The notes under the pieces were generated by a model. That model saw nothing but the letters and a program-made list of their open reading frames with translations. It was not told the origin of the DNA and did no database searches. Of a stretch of 64,000 bases of DNA, positions 12,000 through 59,450 are shown piece after piece; position 1 is the stretch's first letter; each line of letters begins with the position of its first letter. The stretch is from UHGV virus genome UHGV-2031204. One strand, given 5' to 3'. Both the position numbers and the translations under genes were made by a program. This DNA comes from a virus.

Positions 12000-12020
12000 T
12001 CGACTTGTAAGGTATTATCA

Positions 12021-12692: not shown

Positions 12693-12711
12693 ACCTTAAG
12701 GAATAAATCAA

Positions 12712-13194
12712 ATGGCACAAGTAATGTCTACTAAAGAACTGGCTGCAATGATCGATGCGCTGGAAACTCCGGCAATGACTATGGACGAAAGCGCGGTACT
12801 TAACGCAGACCCGTTAATCAAAATCTACGAAGAATCACTTCCGGTCATCAAAGTGAACGACACCGATTATCGTCTGACGCTACAGGATGCGGATGCGGTT
12901 CGCCAACACGATGCAAACTTCCTGGAAGTCTACGGTAAGGTTGCATCAGAACTTATCGTTGAGAAAGCGAAAGCAGACGACGAATTGGTCGCACTGGACC
13001 TTACCACGAATATTGGTAACGCGTCGTTCTCTACGGTGTTCTCACGTCCAACTGGGGAAACAGTAGGGGCGTCTGAATGGGCAGCTTCTATCGGCTTTGG
13101 TTACGGTGTACCTAAGTCAAAAGAGCTGGAAGGGAAAATGCGCAAAGTGTTTGCCGATGCGATGATGGCGGGCGATGACGAAGACGACGAATAA
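12712..13194 (+). CDS. hypothetical protein with acidic C-terminus
   Basis: 160-aa ORF, AAGGAA RBS, C-terminal GDDEDDE; followed by two intrinsic terminators. Confidence 0.65.
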   Translation: MAQVMSTKELAAMIDALETPAMTMDESAVLNADPLIKIYEESLPVIKVNDTDYRLTLQDADAVRQHDANFLEVYGKVASELIVEKAKADDELVALDLTTNIGNASFSTVFSRPTGETVGASEWAASIGFGYGVPKSKELEGKMRKVFADAMMAGDDEDDE

Positions 13195-13212
13195 GATCGG
13201 TATTATTTCAGG

Positions 13213-13235
13213 AGCCCGACTATATCGGGCTTTTG
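13213..13235 (+). terminator. intrinsic terminator
   Basis: AGCCCGACTATATCGGGCT hairpin followed by TTTTG. Confidence 0.6.
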
Positions 13236-13353
13236 TTCCTGAAGAGAAAATCAATCCTACGAAATGGCAACAACCTCTTTCTCGGAAGCCAGGGCCACCT
13301 AGACCGATTGATGGTCTGGTTTACCTGAGCCACCGACGGAGAAAATAAAATCT

Positions 13354-13384
13354 AGGGCGGTCTTATGACCGCCCTATTTTTTTT
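13354..13384 (+). terminator. intrinsic terminator
   Basis: AGGGCGGTCTTATGACCGCCCT hairpin followed by T8. Confidence 0.75.
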
Positions 13385-13403
13385 GATTTCAGGAGATAAA
13401 ACA

Positions 13404-13961
13404 ATGCAAAACTTATTCGATGGTTATCCCATGGCTCAAGAAAAGCCGAATACAGAACGGCCCGTACCGCTTCCTAACGTCATGAACCGTACAGAAGTCA
13501 TTAGTCATCTTAACCAGATCGGTGAAATCTTTACGTTGTCTATGCAAGCCACTTTAGGTGATGCGTTTCCACACATCGCGGGCTGGCCTGCTGAAACGAT
13601 CCCACACACTATCAACGGCTACCAGCGTTTCTTAACCGAAATACGTAGCAGTTCTGTCGGTAATGTCGTCGCCGGTTACGTTATCCGTTTCAAACAACTC
13701 TTACGGATTGAGTTCGGTGAAGATGTATTAGAAGCGTTAGAATCTGAATTGGTTAGCTTGCACAACAACGAAATTATACGTAACGAAAAAGGAAATGGCG
13801 ACACAGAACTAACACTGTGGCGTGTTGCTTATCCCAGCGACACCACCAACACACCACCCACCACGTTCGATTTACTCTCTACGTTCCTGCTGCTAATGCA
13901 GATGAAAAACTTAATTATTCGTTCTTCTGCCCGTAAACAACTGGCGCAAGAAGAAAAATAA
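13404..13961 (+). CDS. hypothetical protein
   Basis: Start chosen at ATG 13404 after AGGAGA RBS (ORF track begins at 13365 inside the terminator). Confidence 0.65.
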   Translation: MQNLFDGYPMAQEKPNTERPVPLPNVMNRTEVISHLNQIGEIFTLSMQATLGDAFPHIAGWPAETIPHTINGYQRFLTEIRSSSVGNVVAGYVIRFKQLLRIEFGEDVLEALESELVSLHNNEIIRNEKGNGDTELTLWRVAYPSDTTNTPPTTFDLLSTFLLLMQMKNLIIRSSARKQLAQEEK

Positions 13962-13967
13962 AAGCTA

Positions 13968-14008
13968 CCTACCTCCATGACGGAGGTAGGTAAACTTATT
14001 TTTTTTTG
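13968..14008. terminator. bidirectional intrinsic terminator between convergent genes
   Basis: CCTACCTCCATGACGGAGGTAGG hairpin flanked by A-run upstream and T9 downstream. Confidence 0.75.
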
Positions 14009-14009
14009 C

Positions 14010-14885
14010 TTAACGAAGCTGATTTGCCATCTGCTCGTCGGACACAGAACGATAACCGCCAGCCGTAGCATCGACGTCTGGGTTGATGCCGTTGGTCTGT
14101 TGAGACGGAGTAAGCCACAGTTTGCGTTCGTAAGGACGCAGGCCGTAAAGCTTCATGCGCTCCAGTTCTTTCTGAGCTGCCTGCATCGGACCCCAACCTG
14201 TCCATTGCTGGGAGGTGAAGGTGATAGACAGTTCGTTGGTCTGAGGACCGGTGTTCGGGTCACGTTCACCGATATCCTGACCGTTAGACTCAGGAGCCAT
14301 GTTCGTCAGCCACCAAGCGTTCTGCGGTTTACGCTGATACGCATCCGGTTCGAAATACAGCACGGTCATGCTGTACATATCCGGCAGGTGGTCAGGAACG
14401 TTCGGGTTGATTGCCGCCAGACCAGGGTGGCCTGTGTGCGGGTCACAAACACCGTATACCAGCCACGCCCAGAGCATGTTCTGATACACTTTACCCAGTT
14501 TATCCGGGGTCGTGTGCGTAACCGAAGACAGTGCTTCGGTTACCAGACCAGCTTCGTACTGAACGCGGTTGTTACGTCCCTGCTGAGTCTGTACGTACTC
14601 AGCACTCAGGGATTTGTCCAGGCCGGTAATCGTGGTGTGAACCTCGATGAACGATTTGATTGCCTGACGCCACAGTTGTGGGTTCGGCATGTAATCAACC
14701 CAACGAGGGAACTCCATCACACGTGCGATTACGTTACGACGCAGACGGTGGGCGTTGGTAACGAACTTACCAACCTGACCGACCGGACCGTTTTGACCAG
14801 ACGAGAAGGGGTTAACCATATCGTACTGGCCGCCGTCGACGTGGAGGCCCTGGTCAGGTAAAATCATGCGTTCTTTGATAGACAT
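14010..14885 (-). CDS. hypothetical protein, probable abundant virion structural component
   Basis: 291-aa minus-strand ORF; GGAGG RBS and TAATAGATG stop-start coupling with the upstream 685-aa gene; opposite-strand ORF 13977..14861 is Arg-rich antisense-like. Confidence 0.7.
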   Translation of the reverse strand: MSIKERMILPDQGLHVDGGQYDMVNPFSSGQNGPVGQVGKFVTNAHRLRRNVIARVMEFPRWVDYMPNPQLWRQAIKSFIEVHTTITGLDKSLSAEYVQTQQGRNNRVQYEAGLVTEALSSVTHTTPDKLGKVYQNMLWAWLVYGVCDPHTGHPGLAAINPNVPDHLPDMYSMTVLYFEPDAYQRKPQNAWWLTNMAPESNGQDIGERDPNTGPQTNELSITFTSQQWTGWGPMQAAQKELERMKLYGLRPYERKLWLTPSQQTNGINPDVDATAGGYRSVSDEQMANQLR

Positions 14886-41811: not shown

Positions 41812-41854
41812 ACCAACACTACAATTGTATTAAACCTTATAAGGATTAAGTAAA

Positions 41855-43702
41855 ATGGCTAAAGAGTTTATTGACAATCAAAACGACGTTGTGACTGGTG
41901 CTGCTGGTTCCGCTGCAGATCCAATTCCGTCTTTCGGTGGCGCGGGAGCTGCTACTGTGGATAATACCAATGCGGCCAACGCTTTTGGTGGGATGTCTAA
42001 AAACATCTCTACTTTCGATAAAGCTTTCGGATACATGTCTTTCGTGTCCACTGCTTCTCAGTTCACCAGCCTGATTGAGAAGATGGCGGAGAAGAATACA
42101 TACCTGCGTAACTTCCGTTGGGGTGTTATTGACGGCATCAACTCTGAAATGGGTTCTGCTGCATACGTGGCTGGTCCGTCTGGCGATAACCATAACGAAT
42201 GGCTCTACGGCATCCTGTTCTTTGAACATGGCCAGTCCATCCGTTTCTACGAAATCAACGGTAAAGAAAACTACTACACCCTGGCGCAGCTGTTCAGCCA
42301 AGAAGGTGTGATGAACAACATCACTAACCAGATTGCAACTCAGCACAACCTGCCAAGCGTACAGTTCATGGTAATGAACTGCGTACCGGAACTGGGTAAA
42401 ACCATGAACGAAGAATGGGCTAACCAGCTCATGGGCCAGATTGCACTGGGTATCTTCGGTCGTCATTCCGGCTACCTGGGCTACCTGAAAATGACCCGTT
42501 CTGATCGCTTCACCGCGCAAGTCAGCGTAGTTGAAGAAGGTTCTGTAACTGATGTTAACGGTTCTGCACAACGTGCTGACCTGATGGTTGTGGTTGACCA
42601 TACTCGCACCGGCAACAACGATAATAACCCGACGCTGTTCTCTTCTGAACGCCTCCAGAATTATCCGAGCGTTGCAGGTGTTGGTTACATCAACCTCCGC
42701 CATAAAGGTAAACCTCAGACCCTGACTAACGGTACTCAGGACCTGCGTCAGCTGGAAGCCGAAGTGGTTGTTTCCCTGATGGATTCTCAGTCCTCTGGGG
42801 CAATGGCACCTATCGAGCGTCAGCTGATTGAACTGGCCGCGTTCGCACAAATCGCCACTATCGGTGGCTGGCGTGAACGTTTCATGCAGTCGCTGAACAA
42901 AACCGATCGCCGCTTCTCCCGCGTTCTGGAGTATGTAGAATGGGGCAGCGAAAAACCTGACCTGAGCAAAATCGACGGTAACCGTGAAGTTATCGAGAAA
43001 TGCCTGGACACCTTCGCTAACCCGACTGCGGCCCTGGTGGTGAACCATCGTGCAGGTAACGGTATCGGTGGTCTGTCTACTCTCCTGAGCGAAATCGGGA
43101 TGGGTAACACCAACGCACTGTACACCCTGTTCAATATCCTGGATAACATGGCCAGCAACGGCGCGACTAAGTTCAGCACTCGCTTCAAAGCACTGCTGGG
43201 CAATGTCACCAACTTCGAGTGCAAACACGTTGTTATTGCCGGTTGCCCGACCATCTCTGGCCAGTATTTCAGCAACAGCCAGAAACGCAGCTTCCAGGAT
43301 ATGGACTTGGTTTCCGCTCTGACTAAAGTGGGTGATAACCAACGCGATGCGATCGACTACATCAGTGCACAGTCCTACTCTCACCGCTATCTGAATGCGC
43401 GTGACCAGCGTCTGTACCTGCTGAAAATGGCTGCGTCCATGTTCGGTAGCAAACAGCCGCAGGTAACGGGTGAAGCGTCTGACCTGGCGATCAATCCGCT
43501 GTTTGGTAAAGCACTGGTGGAATACATTACTGAAAACTGCAACTTCCAGGTGAATGGTGTTACCGCAGCGAACAGCCTCACTCACTCTGTGTTTGTTAAC
43601 ACGGGTAATGAGAACTTCGCGCTGTCTGGTAGCGGTCCTAACGCATTTGGTAGCGATTTCGGTATGTCCTTCGCTGCAACTGACTGGCGTCCGACTTTCT
43701 AA
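41855..43702 (+). CDS. highly expressed protein; candidate chimallin-like phage-nucleus shell protein (alternative: another abundant major protein)
   Basis: 615 aa; markedly host-optimal codon usage (CTG, CGT, GGT, AAC, TTC, ATC) unlike neighbours; two promoter-like motifs upstream; strongest terminator in window downstream; Gly/Ala-rich flexible N- and C-termini; no alignment possible. Confidence 0.35.
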   Translation: MAKEFIDNQNDVVTGAAGSAADPIPSFGGAGAATVDNTNAANAFGGMSKNISTFDKAFGYMSFVSTASQFTSLIEKMAEKNTYLRNFRWGVIDGINSEMGSAAYVAGPSGDNHNEWLYGILFFEHGQSIRFYEINGKENYYTLAQLFSQEGVMNNITNQIATQHNLPSVQFMVMNCVPELGKTMNEEWANQLMGQIALGIFGRHSGYLGYLKMTRSDRFTAQVSVVEEGSVTDVNGSAQRADLMVVVDHTRTGNNDNNPTLFSSERLQNYPSVAGVGYINLRHKGKPQTLTNGTQDLRQLEAEVVVSLMDSQSSGAMAPIERQLIELAAFAQIATIGGWRERFMQSLNKTDRRFSRVLEYVEWGSEKPDLSKIDGNREVIEKCLDTFANPTAALVVNHRAGNGIGGLSTLLSEIGMGNTNALYTLFNILDNMASNGATKFSTRFKALLGNVTNFECKHVVIAGCPTISGQYFSNSQKRSFQDMDLVSALTKVGDNQRDAIDYISAQSYSHRYLNARDQRLYLLKMAASMFGSKQPQVTGEASDLAINPLFGKALVEYITENCNFQVNGVTAANSLTHSVFVNTGNENFALSGSGPNAFGSDFGMSFAATDWRPTF

Positions 43703-43731
43703 TAAGTTGGTAAGTAGTAAGCAGTAGTTGA

Positions 43732-43774
43732 GGGACAGGGGAAAACCCCCTGTCCCTTCCCTCTCTTTTTTTGT
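43732..43774 (+). terminator. strong intrinsic terminator after the codon-optimised 615-aa gene
   Basis: GGGACAGGGGGAAAACCCCCTGTCCC hairpin followed by TTCCCTCTCTTTTTTTG. Confidence 0.85.
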
Positions 43775-43786
43775 TGAGGATTCGGC

Positions 43787-45394
43787 GTGGAACATAAACT
43801 AGAATATTACGGGATTTCGGGGCGACTAATTAGTCACGACAAGATGTTACGTGACTGTATACAAGAAGCGGAGGAAAAAGGCTACAAACCACCGATTATT
43901 ATCAATGACGTTGCTGCAACGATGGATACCATCGAAGCGTCGGAGATGATTAACCAAATACTCCAAAACCGAATCGTTGATGAAACACTCAACTCGGCTC
44001 CTATTTGCAGTCTGACCTGCGAATCACCTATTACCCATCGTTATAATCTTGGGCTACGTTGCCCACATTGCGGACATGTTGTTTCTGAACATCGGATTAC
44101 GTCCGATGTCTGGTTACGCGCCCCCGATGAGATGGGTAACTTTATCAATCCACGTTTTTGGTCTCTCTTTAATGCCTTCTTTGGCTCTAAGCTGAAAAAA
44201 TTTAATCGTAACAAAGTGACGGTAGAGCGCGGGTCTGATTTACTGCTGTGGCTAATCGATCCGTACTACCATCCAGAAAAGGACGAAGGAACACGTGCTC
44301 GCGTGGTGAAAAGAATACTCGGCGAACATGGCTTCGAACGGGGAATTCGAAACTTTATCGACCACCATCGAACCGTCTTTAATATCCTTACGTCCCCGGA
44401 AGCTTGGAAGGAGATTTATCCGCCAACGAAAAATAACCGTTATGAGAGTGAGCGCGTACGCTTAGAATGGCGTGAGTTCTTTCAGGAACAATCGTTCTCA
44501 TTCTTTCCAAGACACCTTCCGATTATTTCATCAAAACTGATCGTTACGGAGGAACGTCGACAAGGTATTTTTATCGATCCGGTTTATACCAGCGCTATCG
44601 ACGCAGTAAAAAATGTGGCGTTGTTGTACACGAATGCACGTCGTATCGAACCACGATTTATTATTCGTCGCGCAATCAAAGCGAATCGACAGCTTGCGTA
44701 TTTCTATATTGACCATCGTCAGGAAGTGATGGAAGGTAAACCTGGGTTCTATCGGGCAAAACTCGGGTCAACACACGTACCGTGGGGCGGACGTGTGACT
44801 ATCTCTCCTATCTCTGAACCTCACGATGCGTTGAAAGTTATTGCGCCTTGGCGTTGGTTGGTTCCGTTGGCGAGTGTTCACATCGAGAACAAGTTAGGTC
44901 GTCGTGATTATACACCTCGACAATGTGAGCGCATTATTGCATTTGCGGCAATGCAGTATGTACCGCTGGTACATGAAATTATTAATGAGTTGATTAAAGA
45001 ATCCCCCGGCGGATTCGGCTTAATGTTGGAAGTTCTGCGTAACCCAACATTGGTTCAACTTTCTATTCAGACATTGTTCATCTCAGCGGTACTGACAGAT
45101 GTAACACAATGTTCTCTGCGTATTTCTGATCGTGTCATCAAAGCGCCTAACGCTGATTTCGATGGCGACCAGTTACAATGCAGATTGGCAATCGACCAGA
45201 TTGAAATGGAACTGGGCATGGCTTATCGCCCAGACAACGGGTTTATGTCAAGCACGAATGTGGACGAGGTTTCGAGTTGTATGATTCTCCATAACGAGAA
45301 TATCAGCAACATAAACAGTTTCTTCCAGGATACTGAAGAGGACTTGGAAGCCGGTATCGCGCTTGACTCTGAATTATTAAAATTGGCGGGGTAA
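43787..45394 (+). CDS. multisubunit RNA polymerase beta-prime subunit, N-terminal module
   Basis: Canonical APNADFDGDQLQ catalytic motif near the C-terminus; Cys cluster CSLTCE...CPHCGH (zinc-binding-like); GTG start. Confidence 0.85.
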   Translation: MEHKLEYYGISGRLISHDKMLRDCIQEAEEKGYKPPIIINDVAATMDTIEASEMINQILQNRIVDETLNSAPICSLTCESPITHRYNLGLRCPHCGHVVSEHRITSDVWLRAPDEMGNFINPRFWSLFNAFFGSKLKKFNRNKVTVERGSDLLLWLIDPYYHPEKDEGTRARVVKRILGEHGFERGIRNFIDHHRTVFNILTSPEAWKEIYPPTKNNRYESERVRLEWREFFQEQSFSFFPRHLPIISSKLIVTEERRQGIFIDPVYTSAIDAVKNVALLYTNARRIEPRFIIRRAIKANRQLAYFYIDHRQEVMEGKPGFYRAKLGSTHVPWGGRVTISPISEPHDALKVIAPWRWLVPLASVHIENKLGRRDYTPRQCERIIAFAAMQYVPLVHEIINELIKESPGGFGLMLEVLRNPTLVQLSIQTLFISAVLTDVTQCSLRISDRVIKAPNADFDGDQLQCRLAIDQIEMELGMAYRPDNGFMSSTNVDEVSSCMILHNENISNINSFFQDTEEDLEAGIALDSELLKLAG

Positions 45395-45400
45395 TGAAAC

Positions 45401-45988
45401 ATGGGCATGTGGAACTTAGGCGGAACCATCTGGACGCGACAAACTGAAAATAGCGGGATGTATCGCTATTTCAGAGACAATTTCGATATTAACGCCTTTG
45501 CTCCCGACATGATCGAAAGCGTTAAACGAAAATGTAATGAGTTAATTTCATTAGAGCGTTTCCGTGAGATGTATGCAGCCGCACGCAAAGTACAGCACAG
45601 CGATGCGACTGACGTTGTACGACAATTGGAGAAGATAGGACAATTCCAGTTTGCAAACGCAACTTTACAGCCGTTGCTGATGGCATTGCCAGAATATCGA
45701 CAATTGTACAATAACAACATGGCGACCGGTTACGAGAACGGGTATTCGAAAATCGATAACTTCCGTGGTTCGGCGTATATGCATACGGACGATAACTTCC
45801 GCGAAGTAACGTCGGGTATGTCCAACGAGTACGATGAAGATCGTATTTGGAACTGGGTATCCAACGAAGATCGATCCAACAAACTCACGCGTGTAGAGCA
45901 AGTTGACATGCAAATCAACTGGGCACGTATGCGGAGTTTTGATTGGGAAGACGAAGATCCGTGTTCTGAACTCGGCGCTTCGTGTTAA
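45401..45988 (+). CDS. hypothetical protein
   Basis: 195-aa ORF starting 6 nt after the RNAP gene; terminator follows. Confidence 0.65.
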   Translation: MGMWNLGGTIWTRQTENSGMYRYFRDNFDINAFAPDMIESVKRKCNELISLERFREMYAAARKVQHSDATDVVRQLEKIGQFQFANATLQPLLMALPEYRQLYNNNMATGYENGYSKIDNFRGSAYMHTDDNFREVTSGMSNEYDEDRIWNWVSNEDRSNKLTRVEQVDMQINWARMRSFDWEDEDPCSELGASC

Positions 45989-49143: not shown

Positions 49144-49788
49144 ATGGTCAATAAAAACTTCCTTAAAGAGAAATGGCTTTACCCGCAGACTGAGCCGGAT
49201 CAACAGGGCCGTACTCGTAAACTGGGCATTGAATTGAACGAGTTCAATGGTGATGTGGAACTGATGAAATTCCACTATTCCTTTGGTAAAGGCGAAGGTC
49301 TTTATTTCACCGCAGGCTATACTGTCTGTGTTGATATCTTTGAAACCCTGCGTACGGTGATGCAGAAACCCGAAAAAGTTGTTTTCAAATGGGAAGATAC
49401 AAAAGGTAAGAAGGCACCGGTTAGCTTACACGTAGGTCGTGATGAAAATCTGACACCGTTCTTTGCACTGAGCGGTGAGATCCCAGGGGTTGGTGCGCGT
49501 CAGAAGAAATTCTATTTCACCTATCCGAAAGGTTATCGTGTTTTCCGTAATGGACAACTGGTCTCCGATCTGGAACTGGCAGAGCGTCAGCTACGCGCGT
49601 TCCTGAAAAATGCAGATGTATTCCTGGAAGATTTCCGTGACAACTACAAACCGCGTGAGTTTAATAATGCGGCTGGTGGTAGTTACGGTCGCGGCGGTTA
49701 CAATAACGGCGGCAACGGCGGCGGTTATAACAACCAATCTGCCGCAAAAGCCCCAACACCAACTAACGATTTTGACGATATTATCTAA
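49144..49788 (+). CDS. single-stranded-DNA-binding-protein-like protein (Gly/Tyr/Asn-rich linker plus acidic tip)
   Basis: C-terminus GGSYGRGGYNNGGNGGGYNNQ...PTNDFDDII resembles the SSB glycine-rich linker and acidic DFDDDIPF tip; host-optimal codon usage; N-terminal fold not assessable. Confidence 0.45.
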   Translation: MVNKNFLKEKWLYPQTEPDQQGRTRKLGIELNEFNGDVELMKFHYSFGKGEGLYFTAGYTVCVDIFETLRTVMQKPEKVVFKWEDTKGKKAPVSLHVGRDENLTPFFALSGEIPGVGARQKKFYFTYPKGYRVFRNGQLVSDLELAERQLRAFLKNADVFLEDFRDNYKPREFNNAAGGSYGRGGYNNGGNGGGYNNQSAAKAPTPTNDFDDII

Positions 49789-49837: not shown

Positions 49838-49860
49838 GTGTATGTGTGTAGAATACAGTC

Positions 49861-49893
49861 GAAGTTATCTGAGATAGATTTTATCTTAGTGGA
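49861..49893 (+). promoter_or_regulatory. conserved promoter-like element
   Basis: GAAGTTATCTGAGATAGATTTTATCTTAGTGGA, 28 nt upstream of ATG 49922. Confidence 0.5.
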
Positions 49894-49921
49894 CGACTAT
49901 GTTATTCCTGGAGATTTTAAA

Positions 49922-51550
49922 ATGCGCATTGAAAAGAATCGTGACCGTTTAGTGATAAAGTACGGCGAAAAAGAGGTCGCGTTTAATGGTTTCCGAAATG
50001 GACGTAAAGACGTGAATGTGCCAGACGTACGCGATAGTTTCGGACAGATCGTAACGCACGATAAAATTATGTTCATGGAAATCGAGCGTTATTGGTCAAC
50101 TTTAACACCCGAAGAGAAAAGCGAACTGTTTTCAGTTTACGAAGAATTAGAGTTGTTAGCTAATGAACCCCCAGAAGTTATTCGTGAACACGTCCCCACG
50201 CTCGTCGCGAGAATTGCTAAATTTCATCACGCAGATAGATTCCGCCAGCTTTATCCACACGGTTCGGTGTGGATTCCTCAAAACGTCCACGAAACGTACG
50301 AAGAGATGTCGTCGAATTATCCAAAAGAGATGACGTATATCGTACAAGATTATTACGAATTGGTGATTTTGTCTTTGATGACAAAACCGTTTATTCCCGT
50401 ATTCTTGATTTTGGACGCTTTTCCTGCAACACGTGCTTCTGTTGAGTCGAAGCGCAAAAGTGTTTATAACCTGACCTACTGCATGGAACTGTTGTCCGAT
50501 ACCGAGATTGCTACACTGCCAGCCATTACAAAGTTGCGTGAGTTTTTAGTGTCGGTGATTTCGAAAGTTCAGGACGGGGGGAGTAAAGGACCCAATACTG
50601 CAAACCTTACCGTCCTGGCATCTATCTGTGGCTACGGTACGGATATGGTAGAGGAATACATCATAGCGTTCGCTGTTATCCGATTAATTGCGATGAAGTT
50701 AATCGGTGCCGAACTACCACCAGGTACGATGGTTGAAAACAACATCGTGGCGGGGATGTATTTCAATATTCGACAAGAAATTGAAACGGGCTTCGCGGGA
50801 AAAATTTCCGGTCAAAACGTGATGCTAAAAGCGAATCCTGAGAAAATCATGTTCAACGGCGAGAAGGGGAAAACTTCGTCGATTGACCTGGTTCAAGCTC
50901 GGACTAAAGCACCAATGAAGGAATTCGTTCGTACTCAAGAATTCTTTAATGACTATCGTCGTGCGGTGCGTGCTTTGAATCTCGATATTGCTCCCGCTGA
51001 TGTGAAAGTGTTGATAGATTCCATCAACATTAACCATCAATATCCTTTCTACGAACTCTACGAATGGTTGGTGGCGGCAGTGATGCACCGATTTGCAGAT
51101 CGTCGTACATACAAGGAAATCGACGCAGAAGCGTTTAAGAATGCGATGGGTATATCCCAAGCCGTTTACATCTATTACGGAATGGCTGAGATTGCACAGT
51201 TGTTAAGTTGTGAAATGATCCGGGCACCGCTAAATGGCGGGTATCCCATCGAGCCAATCGATAATGAGATTAAAATAAAAACGGATAGATATTATCCACA
51301 AGCATACCGTAAGCATCGTAATACTTACGAACAATCAACATTGAAGGATTCTCTCAGCTTGTTGGTTCGTGAACATATCGCGCCGTTCAACTTCAATCTC
51401 AGGGCAACACCGGAAGCAGCCAGAATGTTACGGTGTGGGACAGTGATGTTGGACTATTCACCTCATCCGCGACTTCAGAACATGTTAGCAGAATTTCTGT
51501 TAATTCAAAACAGAAAGAAATGCGAAGAAGTAGCATGGTTTAATCAATAA
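49922..51550 (+). CDS. hypothetical protein (early-promoter-motif gene)
   Basis: Start taken at ATG 49922 after GGAG (ORF track starts at 49838 inside the terminator/promoter region); 542 aa. Confidence 0.65.
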   Translation: MRIEKNRDRLVIKYGEKEVAFNGFRNGRKDVNVPDVRDSFGQIVTHDKIMFMEIERYWSTLTPEEKSELFSVYEELELLANEPPEVIREHVPTLVARIAKFHHADRFRQLYPHGSVWIPQNVHETYEEMSSNYPKEMTYIVQDYYELVILSLMTKPFIPVFLILDAFPATRASVESKRKSVYNLTYCMELLSDTEIATLPAITKLREFLVSVISKVQDGGSKGPNTANLTVLASICGYGTDMVEEYIIAFAVIRLIAMKLIGAELPPGTMVENNIVAGMYFNIRQEIETGFAGKISGQNVMLKANPEKIMFNGEKGKTSSIDLVQARTKAPMKEFVRTQEFFNDYRRAVRALNLDIAPADVKVLIDSININHQYPFYELYEWLVAAVMHRFADRRTYKEIDAEAFKNAMGISQAVYIYYGMAEIAQLLSCEMIRAPLNGGYPIEPIDNEIKIKTDRYYPQAYRKHRNTYEQSTLKDSLSLLVREHIAPFNFNLRATPEAARMLRCGTVMLDYSPHPRLQNMLAEFLLIQNRKKCEEVAWFNQ

Positions 51551-51580: not shown

Positions 51581-53287
51581 ATGGCAATGAAACTTTTGAA
51601 ACTACAAATGTATCCAGTGTACGAAATCCCAGAGCAGATTCGTCGTCGCATTGGGTTCTTTGAATCGCAGCACGCTTTGGATGAGTTAGTGGATGTGGTT
51701 GCAGAACACGGTGATAAAGCAACAGGTTCTCGGGCTTATCAAGAAGCCTTGGGGCAGATTGTGGGTTTCGACAACACCCCAACTGGCATTGAACGTCCAT
51801 TCATTAACGTGAGTGATAACGAATCGCAACCAATCCATTTTGCGTATAATTCTCGCGATACTGGTGTGTATAACTTCGTGGCGATTATTGTTTCGAACTC
51901 GTTAAATGACACACGGACTCAAGAAACACGTTATGTTGTTTCCGGGTATACGTCCCAGGCAGAACGATCCATGTTTAATCACCTGCCGGATGACATGGTT
52001 CTGTATATCAACGAAATATACGGGTTACAATGTACGTATATCACCGATGCGTTTGGTGGACGTCGTATCAACCCGGATTCCTTCCGTTTGATAGACAACT
52101 ATGTGTTGTCCAAGACATTAACCGCAGACAGTTATGTAGAGCACACCATTGACGTTATTTCTACCGCGAAAGCAGCTGATATGGTGCGTAAAGTGGTGAA
52201 AGCTGGTGAGCAGATTGAGCTGGATAACAACACTGTTATCTCTGCTAATTGCCAGCGTGCACCACAGTTGATGTCTAGTCAATTAACACGACCAGAATCT
52301 TTCGTGACAGCTATCTCCAATTCCTTCATTAATACCATGGGGATTGAAACGGAGTTGAGTGCAGTGGACAGTTTCTTCGCAGGAGATCATTCTCTTGGGG
52401 TAGAATCTGAACTTAGCCAGATCGGGGTGATGCGTAATTTCAATAGTTACGAATTGGTGAAGGCTTTTAGAACCGCCATATCCAACGCCACGTCCGATAT
52501 GACTAGCGGTTGGAACGTTGCGAACCGTGCAGCATTCAAACTGTGCGACCTGCGTAACGCGGTGATTAATCCCGAAGACGTAGATGCTGCAATTGCGCAC
52601 TCACTGGCTGTCGCAGCCCGTCGCGGTTTTGGTGAAATTGAACGCACCGATGATTGGGTAGGACGTAACAACTATTCTACTCAGGGTTCGTTGGTGGCAT
52701 TTGATTTAGCCATGTTACTGGGGCCTGTGGTCACTCGTAACCTTATCGGCGAAGTGACTTTCTTCTACGATAACCGTATGGCGGATATTGCAACACCTCC
52801 TCTGCTGCAAGTGTCAAAACACAACGTTGGGGCATTAACTGAAGACGGATTACCGGATGTGTTAGCACGTCGCTTCTTAAGTGACTTACAAGGCGTATTC
52901 TTGCAAGTGACTAAACACAACCGTATTCGTTGTAAGATGACCGTAACGTGTATCGTTGGGGTGGTTTCACGTATTGAAATCGAAATCGATGGTGAGCTGC
53001 CTGAGTATTATACTCATGCGTCGTTCATGAAAGCACGTCTGCATTGTGGTACAACGACTGACCTTCAGTACACGAACCAGTTAGCTGCAGAAACAGCGCA
53101 GCTGATGAACAAAGTGGAAGAAGGGTACCAAGAATTCAACCGTGGTCAGAACCGTTCGAATATCCTGTCGAATATTCCAACTGCCCCTGTGTCTGCACCT
53201 ACGAGCCTGGGTAGCTTCGGTAGCTTTGGTGGTGGCGATATGTCAACCTCTGCGCCAGTGTCTGGCTTTGGTGCATTCGGCGAGTAA
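51581..53287 (+). CDS. hypothetical protein with Gly/Phe/Ser-rich C-terminal tail
   Basis: CCTAAAGGAG leader; 568 aa; C-terminus SLGSFGSFGGGDMSTSAPVSGFGAFGE. Confidence 0.7.
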   Translation: MAMKLLKLQMYPVYEIPEQIRRRIGFFESQHALDELVDVVAEHGDKATGSRAYQEALGQIVGFDNTPTGIERPFINVSDNESQPIHFAYNSRDTGVYNFVAIIVSNSLNDTRTQETRYVVSGYTSQAERSMFNHLPDDMVLYINEIYGLQCTYITDAFGGRRINPDSFRLIDNYVLSKTLTADSYVEHTIDVISTAKAADMVRKVVKAGEQIELDNNTVISANCQRAPQLMSSQLTRPESFVTAISNSFINTMGIETELSAVDSFFAGDHSLGVESELSQIGVMRNFNSYELVKAFRTAISNATSDMTSGWNVANRAAFKLCDLRNAVINPEDVDAAIAHSLAVAARRGFGEIERTDDWVGRNNYSTQGSLVAFDLAMLLGPVVTRNLIGEVTFFYDNRMADIATPPLLQVSKHNVGALTEDGLPDVLARRFLSDLQGVFLQVTKHNRIRCKMTVTCIVGVVSRIEIEIDGELPEYYTHASFMKARLHCGTTTDLQYTNQLAAETAQLMNKVEEGYQEFNRGQNRSNILSNIPTAPVSAPTSLGSFGSFGGGDMSTSAPVSGFGAFGE

Positions 53288-53309
53288 AAGATTAATCAAG
53301 GACTCTTAA

Positions 53310-54689
53310 ATGAAAATTATTGAATTCTACAAATCGTTTCTTAAATCACAAGGATTCGATTTTGAAAACGATTTACTCACTCGTGACGGTGGTGAACCGG
53401 CAGAGTTTACGTATAACAAAGTGAAGCGCCGTTTGGCGCTTCCTACCCCAGCGATGATTAAGCGTGGCATGGAAGACGACGATGGTCGTGAATGTCAAGC
53501 ATTTCATCCACTGTGTGAATCGGTACTGGCAGGTGAATCAGGGACAATTCGTTTCCTGAAGAAATCCATTAATGCGAACCTGTTCATTCGTTCCTTTGCA
53601 TTAATCGACGCGATTCTGGAAACGGGGGCAAGTGGTAAAGCAGTACGTTCAGCTTCCTACAAGAAGTTCTTAACAGAACAGATTTGCGAAGGGATGAAAG
53701 ATCCGACGTTCGATGAGCGTTTGGTAAAATCCTGGGAAGCGGTTAAGGCGTTCGTTTACGCACAATTGGAAAAAGATAAAAAGCACAAGATCACCCAGCT
53801 TTTTATCGCATCTGATTTAGTTATCGATGGTGTGAAGTTTAACCGCGTAGCTAATTATCGGAATATGTTCGAAGAAGAATCGTTAGATGGTACCGCAATG
53901 TACTTCTCTGCGAAGCTTCAACGTAAACAAGACAAAATCATTATCCACCGTTTACTGACCACCGTGTTCGGTTGGTATCCGAGCGTAACGGGGTCTAATG
54001 ATTCGCGTCCGTATTTCGGTTGCTTAGCGCGTGGTTGGGCGCAGTACGTTGTGAATTATAACAACGTCGTTAAGGGATTGCGCGACCACACTTCTTTACG
54101 TCCGTTGGAAGATGAATGGATTTCTCAGCTGGACAATATGGATATTTACGATAACGTCATTCAGACCTTACCGTATAACACCGGCCCACGTTCTGACAGC
54201 CCTGAACGTGATACCACGGCGCATGACTTCCGTATTGATCGTGCACAGGCACCGCAGCAGATCCCACAAAAACGTGCATCGGATGCAGATAAAGCAGATA
54301 AGTCCGATCCGATGGAATTCTTCCGCGCTCGTGAACGTAACATGGCCGCGCATAGTCCTTATGGGAATTTGACGCCAGCGATGCAACGTTACGCTGAGCA
54401 GCACGGAACAACTAACCCCGCCAACGGTATGGTAAGTCGAATTTCTGTTGTGGATGCGTTTGGTGGTGAGCGCAAGGTTTCACCTTTCGGTGGTCAGAGT
54501 AACTTCGGTGTAGGGAATACTGGAGGTTCTTTGGCAAGCACCTTTGGCGGAGGGAATAATTCTTTCGGCGGGAATGTAGGGGGGACTAGCGCATTTAGCA
54601 CAAGTTCAGCATTTGCATCGAATAGCAGTTTTGGCGGGCAGCCGCAAAGCAGCTTCGGCGGATTTGCAACTTCGGCATTTACGCGTTAA
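53310..54689 (+). CDS. hypothetical protein with FG/SFGG-repeat C-terminal low-complexity domain
   Basis: 459 aa; last ~90 residues hold about nine xFGG/xFxS repeats (AFGG, PFGG, NFGV, TFGG, SFGG, SFGG, SFGG, GFAT); terminator follows. Confidence 0.7.
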   Translation: MKIIEFYKSFLKSQGFDFENDLLTRDGGEPAEFTYNKVKRRLALPTPAMIKRGMEDDDGRECQAFHPLCESVLAGESGTIRFLKKSINANLFIRSFALIDAILETGASGKAVRSASYKKFLTEQICEGMKDPTFDERLVKSWEAVKAFVYAQLEKDKKHKITQLFIASDLVIDGVKFNRVANYRNMFEEESLDGTAMYFSAKLQRKQDKIIIHRLLTTVFGWYPSVTGSNDSRPYFGCLARGWAQYVVNYNNVVKGLRDHTSLRPLEDEWISQLDNMDIYDNVIQTLPYNTGPRSDSPERDTTAHDFRIDRAQAPQQIPQKRASDADKADKSDPMEFFRARERNMAAHSPYGNLTPAMQRYAEQHGTTNPANGMVSRISVVDAFGGERKVSPFGGQSNFGVGNTGGSLASTFGGGNNSFGGNVGGTSAFSTSSAFASNSSFGGQPQSSFGGFATSAFTR

Positions 54690-54702: not shown

Positions 54703-54728
54703 GAAGGGACCGTGTCCCTTCTTTTTTT
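54703..54728. terminator. bidirectional intrinsic terminator
   Basis: GAAGGGACCGTGTCCCTTC hairpin followed by T7; between convergent genes. Confidence 0.75.
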
Positions 54729-55050
54729 AATCATTACCGATGGTGCTAATAATCTCACTGACCGTTCCGACGTCGGGTACGATTAGTTGCGTGATTTCAG
54801 GGGTGAAATTCATGGGGTCTTCTAGCCCGTTTAATAGCATCATCGGATAGATAATGATATCGGCGTAACCTTTGAGTTTACAGTAGGCGTAGAAATTGTG
54901 GACCTCAGGCCAACTGTAGCGTGGGTCAACATTTTCTATTTTAGTTTTCGGGTGTTTACGCAGATAGTCTGTGTAATCGTGCATCACTTTCCATGTCGTG
55001 GTGTAAGGCGCAGGTATGAATTCTTCTAGGGTAATAAAATTGTCTAACAT
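54727..55050 (-). CDS. hypothetical protein
   Basis: 107-aa minus-strand ORF between a terminator and a divergent promoter-like motif. Confidence 0.55.
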   Translation of the reverse strand: MLDNFITLEEFIPAPYTTTWKVMHDYTDYLRKHPKTKIENVDPRYSWPEVHNFYAYCKLKGYADIIIYPMMLLNGLEDPMNFTPEITQLIVPDVGTVSEIISTIGND

Positions 55051-55113: not shown

Positions 55114-57351
55114 ATGAAAACGCCAGTAGAGCTAATGAGCAGTGTGGCTGACCGTGAGATTAATATCACCGAAGTATCAGGTGCAAGGGCATCGATGGTA
55201 GGCAACCATATGAAGTCTGCGGTCCCTATCGACAATCCTGAACCATCGCCACATTTTACAGGGGCAGATATAAACTACCACGATTTTCTGTTCAATGACG
55301 TTGTAGAAGATCCCGGTAGCATCTGCCACTATATGACCAAAGACGGTCGTCAGCGCCGCGCGACGTTTACACGTTATGGTCGTCGTGGGGATTCTAAAGC
55401 GTTGGAACATGCTATCTTCTTCCGCCGTGCAGAAATGAAGGGCGGTAAAACCATGATAGATGTGCTGGAGATTAACTTCTATACTAACCACGACAACATC
55501 TTCTCATCTGAGAAACGTGAGTCGATGAAACTGCGTAGTATTTTACGTGGCGAAACCGATCAGTTGGAAAAGGATGAAATCCTTACAACGATGTCGTGTA
55601 TGGTGGAAGGCGAGTACGCCGATAGCGTCGTGTTACCAACCGTTACGATTTCGCATCCTGATATCATCGAGGATTCTTACACCATCTCTGAGTACGCCGC
55701 CCAAAAACTCCACGGTTATGGTTTGAAAATCGTTGAAAAGACGCTACGTGAAGACGAGTTTTTACTGGATACTTACGGTTATATCGATCCGAACGGTAAT
55801 CGCGTCCCACGGTATTTCCCGGATGTGGGGGAGGCTATTCGTGACGATGGGTTGGTCATTGCATCGCGTCGTTTCGATGAGCTTTACGGTGCAATTGATG
55901 CGTCGCTTGGGGAAACCCAACACGTCTCTCCGTTCTTTGATAGTTGCGAATATGTGGATGCCGATCCCGTCCATTATAAAGCACGTCTTGCAGGCGACAA
56001 AGAACTGATGGAACGTAGCGGTACACGTATCGTCGATATCCAGGTGTGGCGTGATGAAACGTCTTGCGCGAATGGTGCTAACAATATTTCTTGTACCGAA
56101 GAGAACAAACGAGAACTGGATAAATACGCATTAGCATTGAAAGACTATTACAATGCCATCGTACGATTCTATTTCTCAATGTCCCGTGACAAAAATATTA
56201 TCTGGTCGCCGAAAGCGTGCGTGTTGTTGGAAAAAGCGTTCGCTTCTGAAACATACGAGGTCTATCACGAGTTTCGTGAAGAGATACGCGTGGTGATTGA
56301 TGAAGCAATTCGTCGTGGTGAATACGGTAAAGAAAATGTCAGTCAGCAGATTCTTTCTAAGTTGACCTCGCCAGTACAACGTGGACTCAGCGATCCCATC
56401 AACACGTATACCATTCGTATTGCTGTTCGTTATCCGATCCCGGTAACGGTGTCGTCTAAGATTACCGACCGCTCGGGTACGAAAGGGATTGTTGGGCGTG
56501 TATTGCCCGTTGAGCAGATGCCGATTAACGAATTCGGTGAACGTGTTCACGTTTTACGTTCGATGAACGCTGTAATTCGTCGCTCGACTTATGCAGCATT
56601 ATTCCACATGTATTGGTCAGCTGCGTCTGAACAGTTGAAAATGCGTCTTAAACCATTGCTGGATGAAGGACGTATCAGCGAGAGCTGGGAAATCCTGATG
56701 GATTATCTATCACGCTATAATCCAGAATGGGCCAATACACTACAGGCAACGCATCCTACGGAGGATTTACAACGCGAACTTTTCAAAGAGATTTACGATT
56801 TTACAATCCGTATTTACTTACCACATGAACTTGACGACACGCCAGTCGATATCAGTGAACGGTTGGGTGAATTTAAACCGCGTAAATCCAAACTCCTGAT
56901 TACTAATTTCGATGGTAAACAGGAATGGACAAAAAATGAGTTTTACGTAGGTGGTGTGGAAACATTACGTCTGGATAAAACAGGTCGTGAGTTTTCCAGC
57001 ATCTCGTCAATGTATCTGAATTATCTGGGTACGATAGATGCGTCTAACCAAGGCCGTGGTTCGTATCCGATAAACTATAAAACGCTAAAATGGGCTGGTC
57101 CTTCGGAAGAACGACTGTTAGCGGGTTATGGTCCAGGTAACTACGAAGAAGTTCACGACAGGGCAAATAACCCTGCGGTGCATCGTGAGATTTTAGTAGG
57201 GCTTTATCGATCTCAAACCCCGTCTAATCCGGGTCCACTGGTAGACCGGAATAAATTCCCGTTAGGGGATTCACAGATTGACAGGATGATGAAAAACATC
57301 CACAGCTGTGAAGGGTTTGAATTGGTGAAAATGAAAAGGGGCGATGAATAA
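55114..57351 (+). CDS. multisubunit RNA polymerase beta subunit, C-terminal module
   Basis: DRSGTKGIVGRVLPVEQMPINEFGERVHVLRSMNAV aligns with beta [41 protein letters not shown]; downstream GRGSY...LLAGYGPG resembles RSTGSYS...EAYGAA; CCTAAAGGAG leader and promoter-like motif. Confidence 0.8.
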   Translation: MKTPVELMSSVADREINITEVSGARASMVGNHMKSAVPIDNPEPSPHFTGADINYHDFLFNDVVEDPGSICHYMTKDGRQRRATFTRYGRRGDSKALEHAIFFRRAEMKGGKTMIDVLEINFYTNHDNIFSSEKRESMKLRSILRGETDQLEKDEILTTMSCMVEGEYADSVVLPTVTISHPDIIEDSYTISEYAAQKLHGYGLKIVEKTLREDEFLLDTYGYIDPNGNRVPRYFPDVGEAIRDDGLVIASRRFDELYGAIDASLGETQHVSPFFDSCEYVDADPVHYKARLAGDKELMERSGTRIVDIQVWRDETSCANGANNISCTEENKRELDKYALALKDYYNAIVRFYFSMSRDKNIIWSPKACVLLEKAFASETYEVYHEFREEIRVVIDEAIRRGEYGKENVSQQILSKLTSPVQRGLSDPINTYTIRIAVRYPIPVTVSSKITDRSGTKGIVGRVLPVEQMPINEFGERVHVLRSMNAVIRRSTYAALFHMYWSAASEQLKMRLKPLLDEGRISESWEILMDYLSRYNPEWANTLQATHPTEDLQRELFKEIYDFTIRIYLPHELDDTPVDISERLGEFKPRKSKLLITNFDGKQEWTKNEFYVGGVETLRLDKTGREFSSISSMYLNYLGTIDASNQGRGSYPINYKTLKWAGPSEERLLAGYGPGNYEEVHDRANNPAVHREILVGLYRSQTPSNPGPLVDRNKFPLGDSQIDRMMKNIHSCEGFELVKMKRGDE

Positions 57352-59450
57352 TGAAGGGCACTCCAGTTCACGTGCGTGATCTGTGTAAACTGAACTCGGA
57401 TCAGGTGTGGCTATTGCGCGGCAGATATGAAGTGACGTTCGATGACGGGATAACCTTAAACATGTCAGGACGCCACATTAAAATCAGTTGGCCTTATTGG
57501 GGGCTAACACGATTTTATCCGCAGATCCCAATCAGTTCGCAAATGGCGTATAAACATGGCGACACCGCTACAGATGACGCACATCTGAAGTTTATGTCAT
57601 TGGCAGCTGTGGCAGCACGTAAAGCGGGTGTGGATTTAGCAGATACCCGCTATTTATTGCAGCAGCACGTCTATGCGGATGCGTTTAACTTATCGGTGAA
57701 AAATCTGTTGTCGTATTGTGTCACGATTGACTACGATACGATGATGGAAATTTACCAACACCGAAATTTTACGCAGATTCATCAGTGGGCACAAATGTAT
57801 CCTACTGGGTACGACGAAGAAGGTCGGGATATGATCGAAGAAGCGTATCTTCTTATCGAAGATATCTTCAAAGACCCACAACTTCGTTTAAACCCTGTGG
57901 TGATGTCGGTCTTGGATAAAACCATCAAAATGAACCAGGTTCTCCAGGCGTATATACGCGGGAAAACGTCAGAGATTGATTCTCGCGTTTATTCTAACCA
58001 GGTATGGGAAGGTTTCTTTACGGGCCTACATTCTGTAATTAGCCGTCTGAAAGAAGCGGGAGCGACGTCACGTTCTCACCTGTATAATACCGATAAAATC
58101 GCCGATGCGGAATATGCGTCACGTAAGCTACAGTTAGCAGCCAACGTGTTAATGTATTTCGAATACGACGATTGCGGTACGCATCATGTTCACCGCCACA
58201 CGTTTACAGAAAGTAAACTGGAGCGTAAGAAGTACGATGCGATGGTAGGGATGCGTTATCGTTTTGAAGGCGTGGGAGGCCCGTGGCTACGATTCGAGAA
58301 AGGGGAGTTTGAGAAAGTCTTAGGTAAACCTATTGAGTTTCGTACCGCGATGTGCTGTAAGGGGATGGCACGTCAAAGCATTTGTGCAACGTGCATGGGT
58401 GATTTGATTTATAACCTTTCGCCGGGAACGTCCCCAGGTCACTTGGCTTCAACCTCGATATCTGAAAAGGGTACGCAGGGGATTCTCTCAACGAAGCACT
58501 TGGACTTCTTACGTTATCTGCTGAATCTGGTACTGACTCCGAGAATGCGGGATTATCTTGGGGAGTATAAACACAACTCCGTAAAAGGGTTGAGTTTACG
58601 GGAGAAACCGCAGTACGGTAATTGGGATGAATACCAACTCGTTATTTCTGATGAAGTCTATTCTGAAATCAGCCAAATCGCGTATCATGACGATTTGGAA
58701 GTGATCGACGAAACGGCATTGCCGGAGATTAACGAACTGACCTTTTTGCGGTTGGATGAAGCTGGGAATGTGTTGGCTGAAGATCCCATTGACGTCCGTA
58801 TGGGGGTTTGTGGTAACTTCTCGAAAGCCTTCTTGCATTTCTTCCTGAAACAGCGCGATAACATTACCTTCCCGTCGAAGAAGCTGGTACGGATTCCCCT
58901 GAAAGGATGGAAACCGAGTTGGCCGATACTAATTTATACGAATCGGTCTGAATCTATGGCGGAGTTTGTAGCAGGGTTAGAATTGAAACTTCGTTCGGTT
59001 GCGTCTGATAAATCGGATACTTTCGAACAGTTCTCTGATGACTCAATGCGTTTGAGCAAGAAGTCGGGTAAGGTAAAACCAACGACTCTGGTTCAGATGC
59101 GCGGTGCTACGGAGAAACAATGTACGCACGCGTTATTTGATGTGTTTAAATATATCCAACGTAAGCTCGGTGGTATTCCGATGACACACATCGCGATTAT
59201 GCTGGCGATATCACGCGTTGAATCACCGACCAATCCTTTCCCGGCGGTTGGGTTTGATAGTGAAGATGCTGATGTGATGGATGGCAAACGTTTCGAGGAT
59301 CACAATACGTTGATTGCGATGCGTTCAGCTGTACCGATGTTGTTATTCGAAGGCCAACAGAAAAACCTGGACAACGTGCGTTTCTACACGTCGCGTAAAC
59401 GTCCGGCGTCGTTATACGACAATACGGTGGCCGCGACTATCATTGAGTAA
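57351..59450 (+). CDS. multisubunit RNA polymerase beta-prime subunit, C-terminal module
   Basis: CATCMGDLIYN...SISEKGTQGILSTKHL aligns with beta-prime CAHCYGRDLARG...SIGEPGTQLTMRTFH (trigger-loop region G); start overlaps upstream stop (ATAATG). Confidence 0.8.
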   Translation: MKGTPVHVRDLCKLNSDQVWLLRGRYEVTFDDGITLNMSGRHIKISWPYWGLTRFYPQIPISSQMAYKHGDTATDDAHLKFMSLAAVAARKAGVDLADTRYLLQQHVYADAFNLSVKNLLSYCVTIDYDTMMEIYQHRNFTQIHQWAQMYPTGYDEEGRDMIEEAYLLIEDIFKDPQLRLNPVVMSVLDKTIKMNQVLQAYIRGKTSEIDSRVYSNQVWEGFFTGLHSVISRLKEAGATSRSHLYNTDKIADAEYASRKLQLAANVLMYFEYDDCGTHHVHRHTFTESKLERKKYDAMVGMRYRFEGVGGPWLRFEKGEFEKVLGKPIEFRTAMCCKGMARQSICATCMGDLIYNLSPGTSPGHLASTSISEKGTQGILSTKHLDFLRYLLNLVLTPRMRDYLGEYKHNSVKGLSLREKPQYGNWDEYQLVISDEVYSEISQIAYHDDLEVIDETALPEINELTFLRLDEAGNVLAEDPIDVRMGVCGNFSKAFLHFFLKQRDNITFPSKKLVRIPLKGWKPSWPILIYTNRSESMAEFVAGLELKLRSVASDKSDTFEQFSDDSMRLSKKSGKVKPTTLVQMRGATEKQCTHALFDVFKYIQRKLGGIPMTHIAIMLAISRVESPTNPFPAVGFDSEDADVMDGKRFEDHNTLIAMRSAVPMLLFEGQQKNLDNVRFYTSRKRPASLYDNTVAATIIE

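Follow-up and report, generated by a model that had tools for sequence, protein, structure and literature searches.

The 64,000-nucleotide stretch of the virus genome UHGV-2031204 analyzed here (the window) encodes on its plus strand two adjacent proteins of 568 and 459 residues (51581-53287 and 53310-54689), each of which ends in a low-complexity tail rich in Phe-Gly (FG) dipeptides. The 568-residue protein matches phrog_3141 (E = 1.5e-127), as do phiKZ gp69 (2.7e-179) and the RAY and Goslar homologues, and its gene lies between gp68-like and gp70-like genes. Because it shares this PHROG and this gene position and is co-encoded with the nuclear shell protein chimallin, we assign it to the PicA/Imp1 family; by homology, it is a chimallivirus nuclear protein importer. 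PhiKZ gp69 is PicA/Imp1, which is essential and licenses proteins for entry into the phage nucleus, and localization to the nuclear periphery and a requirement for import are known for the PicA proteins of phiKZ, PhiPA3, and 201phi2-1 (PMC11087766; bioRxiv 10.1101/2024.03.27.586873). The 459-residue protein matches phrog_3520 (E = 3.3e-124), which phiKZ gp70 matches at 4.1e-122, and a tblastn search with it recovered PhiPA3 gp064 at 1e-11 and also matched Goslar and RAY; it is likewise, by homology, a member of the phiKZ gp70/PhiPA3 gp64 family of nuclear-shell-associated proteins and is referred to below as gp70-like. The PHROG assignments were checked by scanning the corresponding phiKZ proteins against the same library.

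PhiPA3 gp64 is an early, non-virion, shell-localized protein that is conserved across jumbo phages and was recovered in ChmB pull-downs; shell localization is published for PhiPA3 gp63 (PicA) and gp64 and, within the gp70 family, for gp64 only (bioRxiv 10.1101/2023.05.18.541317). These data bear on one reading of the tails raised in the first-pass annotation of this sequence, namely that they are Gly-rich structural repeats of virion fiber or tail proteins. Such repeats do occur in phage fibers; against this, the homologues are expressed early, are absent from virion proteomes, and reside at the nuclear shell (bioRxiv 10.1101/2023.05.18.541317), the phiKZ virion atlas, which identifies 40 virion proteins, names neither gp69 nor gp70 in its main text, and both window genes sit inside a block of chimallin and non-virion RNA polymerase genes. 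A fiber function thus has almost no chance of being correct, and we rejected it on the localization and proteomics of the homologues.

The gp70-like protein divides into three regions. The first (about residues 1-292; 53310-54185) is a folded N-terminal domain, for which AlphaFold2, supplied with 37 homologues, returns a confident fold over residues 1-290, with a predicted local distance difference test score (pLDDT) mostly >90; this domain has no solved structural relative. From residue 293 to the end, confidence is low (below 50-70) except in three short conserved helices (residues 334-343, 356-365, and 380-383), which fall in a disordered linker spanning residues 293-382 (54186-54455). The corresponding segments DPMEFFRARE, TPAMQRYAEQ, and ISVVDAF(GG) (54309-54455, residues 334-382) are kept across SPN3US-like genera, and the three helices may be binding motifs. 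The third region, the FG tail (residues 383-459; 54456-54686), has the sequence AFGGERKVSPFGGQSNFGVGNTGGSLASTFGGGNNSFGGNVGGTSAFSTSSAFASNSSFGGQPQSSFGGFATSAFTR, 77 residues running from AFGGERK to SAFTR, and is predicted to be disordered, with pLDDT of about 35-40 over residues 385-459. Phe accounts for 11 of its residues, Gly for 19, and Ser for 15, with successive Phe residues 3-13 positions apart. It harbors seven FG dipeptides, whereas shuffling of the tail gives an expectation of 2.7 (P = 0.004), and the 380 residues of the globular part hold two. The last 70 residues of the protein include a single charged residue and four hydrophobic residues other than Phe.

The tail of the window PicA is shorter (34 residues, positions 535-568; 53183-53284). 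It follows a conserved SNIPT motif, runs from SFGSFGGG to GFGAFGE, and has the sequence APVSAPTSLGSFGSFGGGDMSTSAPVSGFGAFGE; it contains four FG versus 0.95 expected by shuffling (P = 0.0016), and the globular part holds two in 529 residues. When the 106 window open reading frames (ORFs) of at least 80 residues are ranked by FG density, the gp70-like protein and PicA take the first two places and the N terminus of chimallin the third. The first-pass annotation was therefore right that both plus-strand ORFs end in FG-rich tails, and a check of disorder and composition bears it out: the tails are predicted by AlphaFold2 to be disordered and are enriched in FG, and that of the gp70-like protein is uncharged. 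It had put the tail of the 459-residue protein at roughly 90 residues; the xFGG repeat character holds, and the length measured is 77. No C-terminal sticker tail has been described for PicA/Imp1 in published work, whereas the window PicA has one; the PicA tails of phiKZ and PhiPA3 are Gln/Asn/Pro-rich rather than FG-rich.

The extreme C terminus of the gp70 family is an observation in its own right. An aromatic residue lies within the last ~5 positions almost always, regardless of tail type (representatives P0001-P0049; 54660-54686 in the window), with endings such as ..SAFTR, ..SFKW, ..WGLGI, ..NFSF, ..FSGML, and ..KFGGR. This suggests a conserved C-terminal anchor that is separate from the repeats.

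The repeats do not trace to repetitive DNA. A search of the gp70-like tail for tandem DNA repeats found none, and no 9-mer recurs there; the sole DNA array is a 21-bp stretch at 53210-53230 (2.3 copies of a 9-nt unit) that encodes SFGSFG of the PicA tail. The longest DNA word common to both tails is 10 nt, which does not exceed codon-shuffled controls. The FG repeats are therefore maintained at the protein level. DNA slippage and gene conversion, considered as sources of the matching tails, were ruled out by these two tests.

The window phage is a chimallivirus, i.e., a nucleus-forming jumbo phage, of the SPN3US/phiEaH2 group; the closest isolates are phiEaH2 and Asesino (62-72% protein identity), and one IMG/VR contig matches the window at 99% identity. 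The first-pass annotation had proposed that the phage may build a proteinaceous nucleus, and we concur, since the window encodes a chimallin confirmed by a fold match. This 615-residue protein (ChmA; 41855-43702, plus strand) is a homologue of SPN3US gp244, which was named chimallin by Laughlin et al. and is 10% identical to the 201phi2-1 chimallin (PMC9365700). Its gene occupies the ChmA slot between the genes for DNA polymerase and a gp55-like RNA polymerase subunit. A Foldseek search with its AlphaFold2 model returned 7SQQ (7.9e-20), 7SQV (1.1e-19), and 8FNE (3.4e-17), with probability 1.0 and a template modeling score of about 0.6. In the Pfam copy used, the chimallin model PF25677 does not match the window protein (phiKZ gp54 scores 1121 bits), and precomputed PF25677 matches are present on some homologues and on the syntenic genes of the metagenomic loci L047 and L049; the window chimallin is a divergent branch. 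The SPN3US-type chimallin is filed in phrog_8316, of "unknown function," apart from phrog_4795, "nuclear shell protein," and is missed by that copy of PF25677; routine annotation would therefore fail to mark this phage as nucleus-forming.

The window chimallin carries a disordered N-terminal tail of its own (N-tail; residues 1-51, 41855-42007, pLDDT about 25), which lies within a longer low-confidence region (residues 1-64, pLDDT <50) and contains the motifs PSFGG and NAFGG, i.e., two FG versus 0.4 expected (P = 0.046). In 201phi2-1 chimallin, the N-tail (residues 1-47) is disordered and unresolved and is dispensable for assembly, and protomers assemble by exchanging an N-terminal segment (NTS) and two C-terminal segments (CTS1 and CTS2). 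The terminal segments of chimallin are flexible and mediate shell contacts, and the window N-tail shares the FGG motif of the PicA and gp70-like tails; NTS and CTS, however, dock as ordered peptides on neighboring protomers, whereas the N-tail of 201phi2-1 is unresolved.

How far the FG motif extends among relatives was examined at two depths. In two IMG/VR relatives (L023 and L024), whose globular domains share ~80-85% identity with those of the window, FG is kept while the spacers differ: the gp70-like tails contain nine FG and 9-10 Phe, nearly all before Gly, and the PicA tails read SFGSFGSFG..VFGAFGE. Because FG persists while spacers change, it is the motif and not the exact sequence that is under selection. 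PSFGG and NAFGG of the chimallin N-tail are also both kept in these two relatives. Outside the window clade (L022-L024), FG is not retained, and sister genera carry other motifs: (G)LGG repeats in Erskinevirus and Seoulvirus, NSLL(D)/LGG in Machinavirus, SLLGG in Wellingtonvirus, and NPF repeats in Derbicusvirus. In contrast to the FG tail of the window protein, the gp70-family tails of phiKZ and PhiPA3, like that of RAY, are Met/Gln/Pro-rich, and those of Xoo-sp14 and a Vibrio phage are Arg/Asp-rich. Conservation of the tails among homologues, whose absence the first-pass annotation had said would refute its idea, thus holds for FG in the nearest relatives, spacers aside, and fails beyond them, where homologues carry LGG, NSLL, NPF, Met/Gln/Pro, or Arg/Asp instead.

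To place these tails in the context of the whole gp70 family, we searched 1.84 billion representative proteins with a profile. The search retrieved 1,476 representatives, with the match confined to the N-terminal 290-340 residues. Among the 150 best representatives, the last 80 residues are low-complexity in 85, versus none of 150 for a globular window; many of these tails are Pro/Gln/Met-rich or highly charged, and eight of the 150 have at least four FG in the last 80 residues. The FG type includes metagenomic tails that resemble nucleoporins, with SMFG/SLFG and Asn spacers (P0068, from L048) or SLFG/GLFG (P0039, from L047), as well as near-perfect tandem units of MFGAPQQAS (P0069, from L049) and repeats of NNPFG (P0070, from L050). 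As judged from these comparisons, the family property is a sticker-spacer tail, of which FG is one variable, lineage-specific flavor.

The central result of this analysis is that, within a given phage, the PicA and gp70-like tails carry the same type of sticker, which has changed together in the two proteins during evolution. The Phe:Leu counts illustrate the pattern. In the window, they are 4:1 in the PicA tail and 10:1 in the gp70-like tail, and CR5 is also of the Phe type (4:1 and 8:2); Leu prevails in both tails of phiEaH2 (0:11 and 3:12), SPN3US (0:7 and 1:15), ChrisDB (0:5 and 1:9), Huxley (1:5 and 1:11), and Wellington (2:4 and 0:13). The Phe-versus-Leu class is identical for the two tails in eight of eight clades. 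By rank, the Phe fractions of the two tails correlate only weakly (rho 0.50, n = 8), since the Leu-type clades differ from one another only by noise. When centered amino acid compositions of the two tails are compared by exact permutation over eight clades, the nominal P is 0.0006, and with 14 clades, including phiKZ-like phages, Goslar, RAY, and Xanthomonas and Vibrio phages, the observed value exceeded all of 200,000 permutations.

The matching extends to exact words. Over 19 lineages, the PicA and gp70-like tails share 42 exact 4-mers versus 12.4 expected (P < 5e-6), among them SFGG/FGGG in the window, GLGG/LGGG in phiEaH2, NSLL/SLLD in Machinavirus, NPFG in L050, SLFG in L048, and RDDR in Xoo-sp14. 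Three independent FG-type lineages fetched later replicate the match: the SMFG/SLFG gp70-like tail of L048 is paired with a PicA tail of DNLFG..DSLFGGG..DLFGGG, the MFGAPQQ tail of L049 with SGLFGGG..NLFS, and the repeated NNPFG of L050 with GGNPFG..NNNPFGG.

The chimallin N-tail appears to follow the same sticker type. It contains 2-3 Phe and zero Leu in the window, with Phe:Leu of 0:4 in phiEaH2 and 0:2 in SPN3US; Leu-type phages carry APLGG, GLGGLG, GGLGGGLGG, or SLDFGSLG at this position, and Derbicusvirus carries GFSVG. For the ratio Phe/(Phe + Leu) of the N-tail, the Spearman correlation is 0.96 with the PicA tail (p = 0.001, n = 7) and a weaker 0.73 with the gp70-like tail (p = 0.06). 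We regard the chimallin trend as suggestive, given that it draws on one or two short motifs per protein. In a neighbor-joining tree of gp68 and the globular parts of PicA, the Phe-type window clade is sister to the Leu-type Erskinevirus and nested among Leu-type clades, and the Phe-type Derbicusvirus is the outgroup. This arrangement requires at least two concerted sticker switches, and in each the chimallin N-tail changed along with PicA and the gp70-like protein.

An internal control for these comparisons is provided by the ChmC/Imp6 homologue (214 residues; 49144-49788, plus strand), which matches phrog_3284 at 2.4e-50, the same PHROG that phiKZ gp67 matches at 6.1e-80. Like PicA and the gp70-like protein, ChmC belongs to this gene block, is shell-associated, and has a disordered, low-complexity C-terminal tail (49654-49785). 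The chemistry of that tail differs, however: it is composed of Tyr, Arg, Gly, and Asn and ends in an acidic-hydrophobic tip, NDFDDII, that resembles the tip of single-stranded DNA-binding protein (SSB). All SPN3US-like genera retain this tail type and its tip ([FY]D[DE]..), a constancy that sets the ChmC tail apart from those of PicA and the gp70-like protein. In the same genomes and only 4 kb upstream, ChmC tail composition is uncorrelated with that of either the PicA or the gp70-like tail, and this lack of co-variation argues against a genome-wide compositional bias. The first-pass annotation had offered, as an alternative, that the FG tails are flexible recruitment linkers like the neighboring SSB-like tail; this may be so, but the ChmC tail is of another composition (Tyr/Gly/Asn) and does not co-vary with the other two.

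The ChmC control also bears on the reading that the tails are neutral low-complexity linkers, that is, flexible spacers or solubility bristles of drifting composition whose likeness comes from shared mutational or compositional bias. The tails are indeed hypervariable, the family tolerates very different compositions, and Leu-to-Phe is a single-nucleotide change. Drift under a shared bias, however, sits poorly with a ChmC tail that stays constant without co-variation and with tail DNA that lacks long shared words. Moreover, Phe-Gly adjacency exceeds the composition-matched expectation, the motif is kept while the spacers change, exact 4-mers are common to both proteins in most lineages, and uncharged hydrophobic stickers are the opposite of an entropic bristle. 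Neutrality is, in our judgment, very improbable.

In both the PicA and the gp70-like tail, hydrophobic stickers are set in Gly/Ser/Asn spacers, the sticker of the window lineage being x-Phe-Gly-Gly. The reading we favor, by a narrow balance, is that the two tails would be multivalent, mutually matched (cohesive) tethers. Such tails would anchor PicA and the gp70-like protein at the chimallin lattice or gather them there, for instance at the import puncta observed with phiKZ, and would employ the same physical principle as the cohesive FG nucleoporins, reached independently and without nucleoporin descent. The nearest precedent within the system is ChmC: its disordered Asn/Gly-rich tail drives the formation of condensates with RNA in vitro (PMC11077065).

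Several points weigh against tethering. PhiKZ gp70 did not co-purify with Imp1 when the two were co-expressed in E. coli (PMC11087766; bioRxiv 10.1101/2024.03.27.586873), which argues against a stable direct complex; weak multivalent contacts would be lost in a pull-down. The tails, at 77 and 34 residues, have a valency far under that of phase-forming FG domains. PhiKZ 070 is not among the listed essential hits of an antisense screen, although its inclusion in that screen is uncertain. The permutation tests take clades as independent, so that significance is overstated and the P values are optimistic. The tail match is weak or absent in distant lineages in which PicA has little or no tail (RAY, Goslar, and L051-L053), and for this reason matching is not universal. 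The whole composition of the chimallin N-tail does not covary significantly with the PicA and gp70-like tails (P = 0.39 and 0.55). Finally, what the tails do is itself inferred from their sequences.

A different account of the co-variation invokes a folded partner. The xFGG units would be short linear motifs that dock in a hydrophobic groove, most likely the chimallin sites that bind the N- and C-terminal segments of neighboring protomers, such that PicA and the gp70-like protein plug into or open the lattice; co-variation would then reflect co-evolution with the chimallin groove instead of tail-to-tail cohesion. Assembly of chimallin by exchanged terminal segments, together with its disordered N-tail, fits this account, as does the near constancy of an aromatic residue at the gp70-family C terminus. 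Resemblances among C-terminal tips point in the same direction: in L039, the tips of chimallin (ChmA, 2022-3827), PicA (11656-13335), and the gp70-like protein (13350-14660) are SSFNF, DSFNF, and GGFSF, respectively, and the chimallin/PicA tips are NSFTL/DNFKL in Wellington and NSFTL/DNFTL in L044, a possible mimicry of the CTS2 docking segment. A C-terminal segment of chimallin likewise changes from DFGLGVSL in Leu-type phages to DFGMSFAA in the window. The similarity of chimallin and PicA tips is nonetheless suggestive only (exact permutation P = 0.076), with L039 and the Wellington-like phages behind it; the chimallin and gp70-like tips give P = 0.375, and a single docking site does not need 7-12 copies of a motif. 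We consider docking of this kind unlikely, if plausible in outline.

Closer to the nucleoporin parallel is the proposal that the gp70-like, PicA, and chimallin N-tails condense into an FG-type permeability phase, which would plug or cover an opening for import in the shell and determine which proteins pass. Here, the tail composition is as in cohesive FG domains (Phe-Gly in uncharged Gly/Ser/Asn/Thr spacers, predicted disordered), FG-type tails recur in independent gp70-family lineages whose PicA tails carry LFG/GLFG, and the pores of the chimallin lattice itself are too small for proteins. Set against this, most gp70-family members have no FG tail (at least four FG in just the eight of 150 noted above), the window tails are short, cryo-electron tomography has revealed no pore structure, and cargo selection in phiKZ Imp1 has been mapped to folded surfaces and not to a tail (PMC11087766; bioRxiv 10.1101/2024.03.27.586873). 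A permeability phase is, in our view, rather improbable. We would rate equally low its fullest form, a convergent gate resembling FG nucleoporins in which gp70-family and PicA tails would act on a brush of chimallin N-tails and share a co-evolving, lineage-specific sticker "dialect" (FGG, LGG, NPF, or MFG). Matched tethering remains the reading that we prefer over such a gate.

The two genes are embedded in a conserved block. The order is gp66-like, gp67, gp68, gp69, gp70, a small reverse-strand ORF, and the non-virion RNA polymerase beta and beta' genes (55114-57351 and 57351-59450, plus strand; phrog_3295 and phrog_3015); it is the same in PhiPA3, phiKZ, Goslar, RAY, Xoo-sp14, and the remaining phages examined, and the order from chimallin to the RNA polymerase subunits is kept in all chimalliviruses examined. 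An Imp3 homologue of the phiKZ gp59 family is encoded at 45401-45988 (plus strand; phrog_3254, common to phiKZ gp59). The small reverse ORF (107 residues; 54727-55050, minus strand; phrog_3455) is the sole reverse-strand gene of the block and lies between the gp70-like and RNA polymerase beta genes in all fetched chimallivirus loci but those of phiKZ and PhiPA3, in whose records no gene is annotated at this position. The gp68-like gene encodes a subunit of the non-virion RNA polymerase (49838-51550, plus strand; phrog_3209, syntenic with phiKZ gp68). Its mechanically called ORF has a GTG start and 570 residues, with homology to relatives beginning near residue 29; translation probably begins instead at the ATG of position 49922 (542 residues, as in related contigs), which would make the GTG start an over-extension. 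An antisense ORF of 649 residues (41846-43795, minus strand) covers the entire chimallin gene, with a local G+C of 0.50 versus about 0.45, and is most likely a noncoding shadow ORF. In a Pfam-A search (E<=0.01), no family was found for any of six neighboring proteins, including the PicA-like and gp70-like proteins. PDB sequence searches with the PicA-like, gp70-like, and chimallin sequences gave zero matches at E<=1, and a search with ChmC gave one nonsignificant match (8tvb_A, E = 0.66).

The searchable literature yielded no account of the tails of PicA and the gp70-like protein, of the way they co-vary, or of a link between chimallin and FG repeats, and on gp70 we found nothing beyond the negative co-immunoprecipitation and the PhiPA3 localization. 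The tails offer a handle on how folded proteins cross the chimallin lattice, a passage for which PicA/Imp1 licenses cargo. The finding here is a matched, co-evolving sticker on the importer, on its neighbor, and, less firmly, on the shell protein, and for the gp70 family it supplies a property that can be tested. Should the tails prove cohesive, they would have converged on the principle by which FG repeats work in the nuclear pore; a convergent FG gate, if real, would mean that the permeability principle of that pore had arisen a second time, independently, in a bacterial virus. If the tails are docking motifs instead, they would reveal the way in which accessory proteins insert into the lattice. 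In both cases, there would be consequences for the species specificity of import and for the engineering of nucleus-forming phages.

These considerations frame the comparison with FG nucleoporins, whose FG domains (GLFG or xxFG, as in Nup98, Nup100, and Nup116) are disordered and typically comprise hundreds of residues and tens of motifs. Nucleoporins function with transport receptors, a pore scaffold, and phase behavior, none of which is known for the window tails. These tails match no Pfam nucleoporin family and harbor 4-7 motifs in 34-77 residues, and their FG motif is not conserved across orthologues, with sister phages using Leu-Gly-Gly or other stickers. Because a sequence-family match is lacking, valency is low, and FG is unconserved among orthologues, the window proteins are not FG nucleoporins. 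The nucleoporin resemblance seen in the first-pass annotation is therefore one of character, in disorder and in FG set among uncharged spacers, and not of homology or of length, the tails being far shorter. The likeness that stands is twofold. The window tails are predicted to be disordered and present multiple FG motifs in polar, charge-poor spacers (seven in 77 residues in the gp70-like protein), and nucleoporin FG domains, like these shell-associated proteins, are located at the border of a compartment that contains DNA and takes up proteins selectively. By analogy, the tails of PicA and the gp70-like protein may work like cohesive FG repeats.

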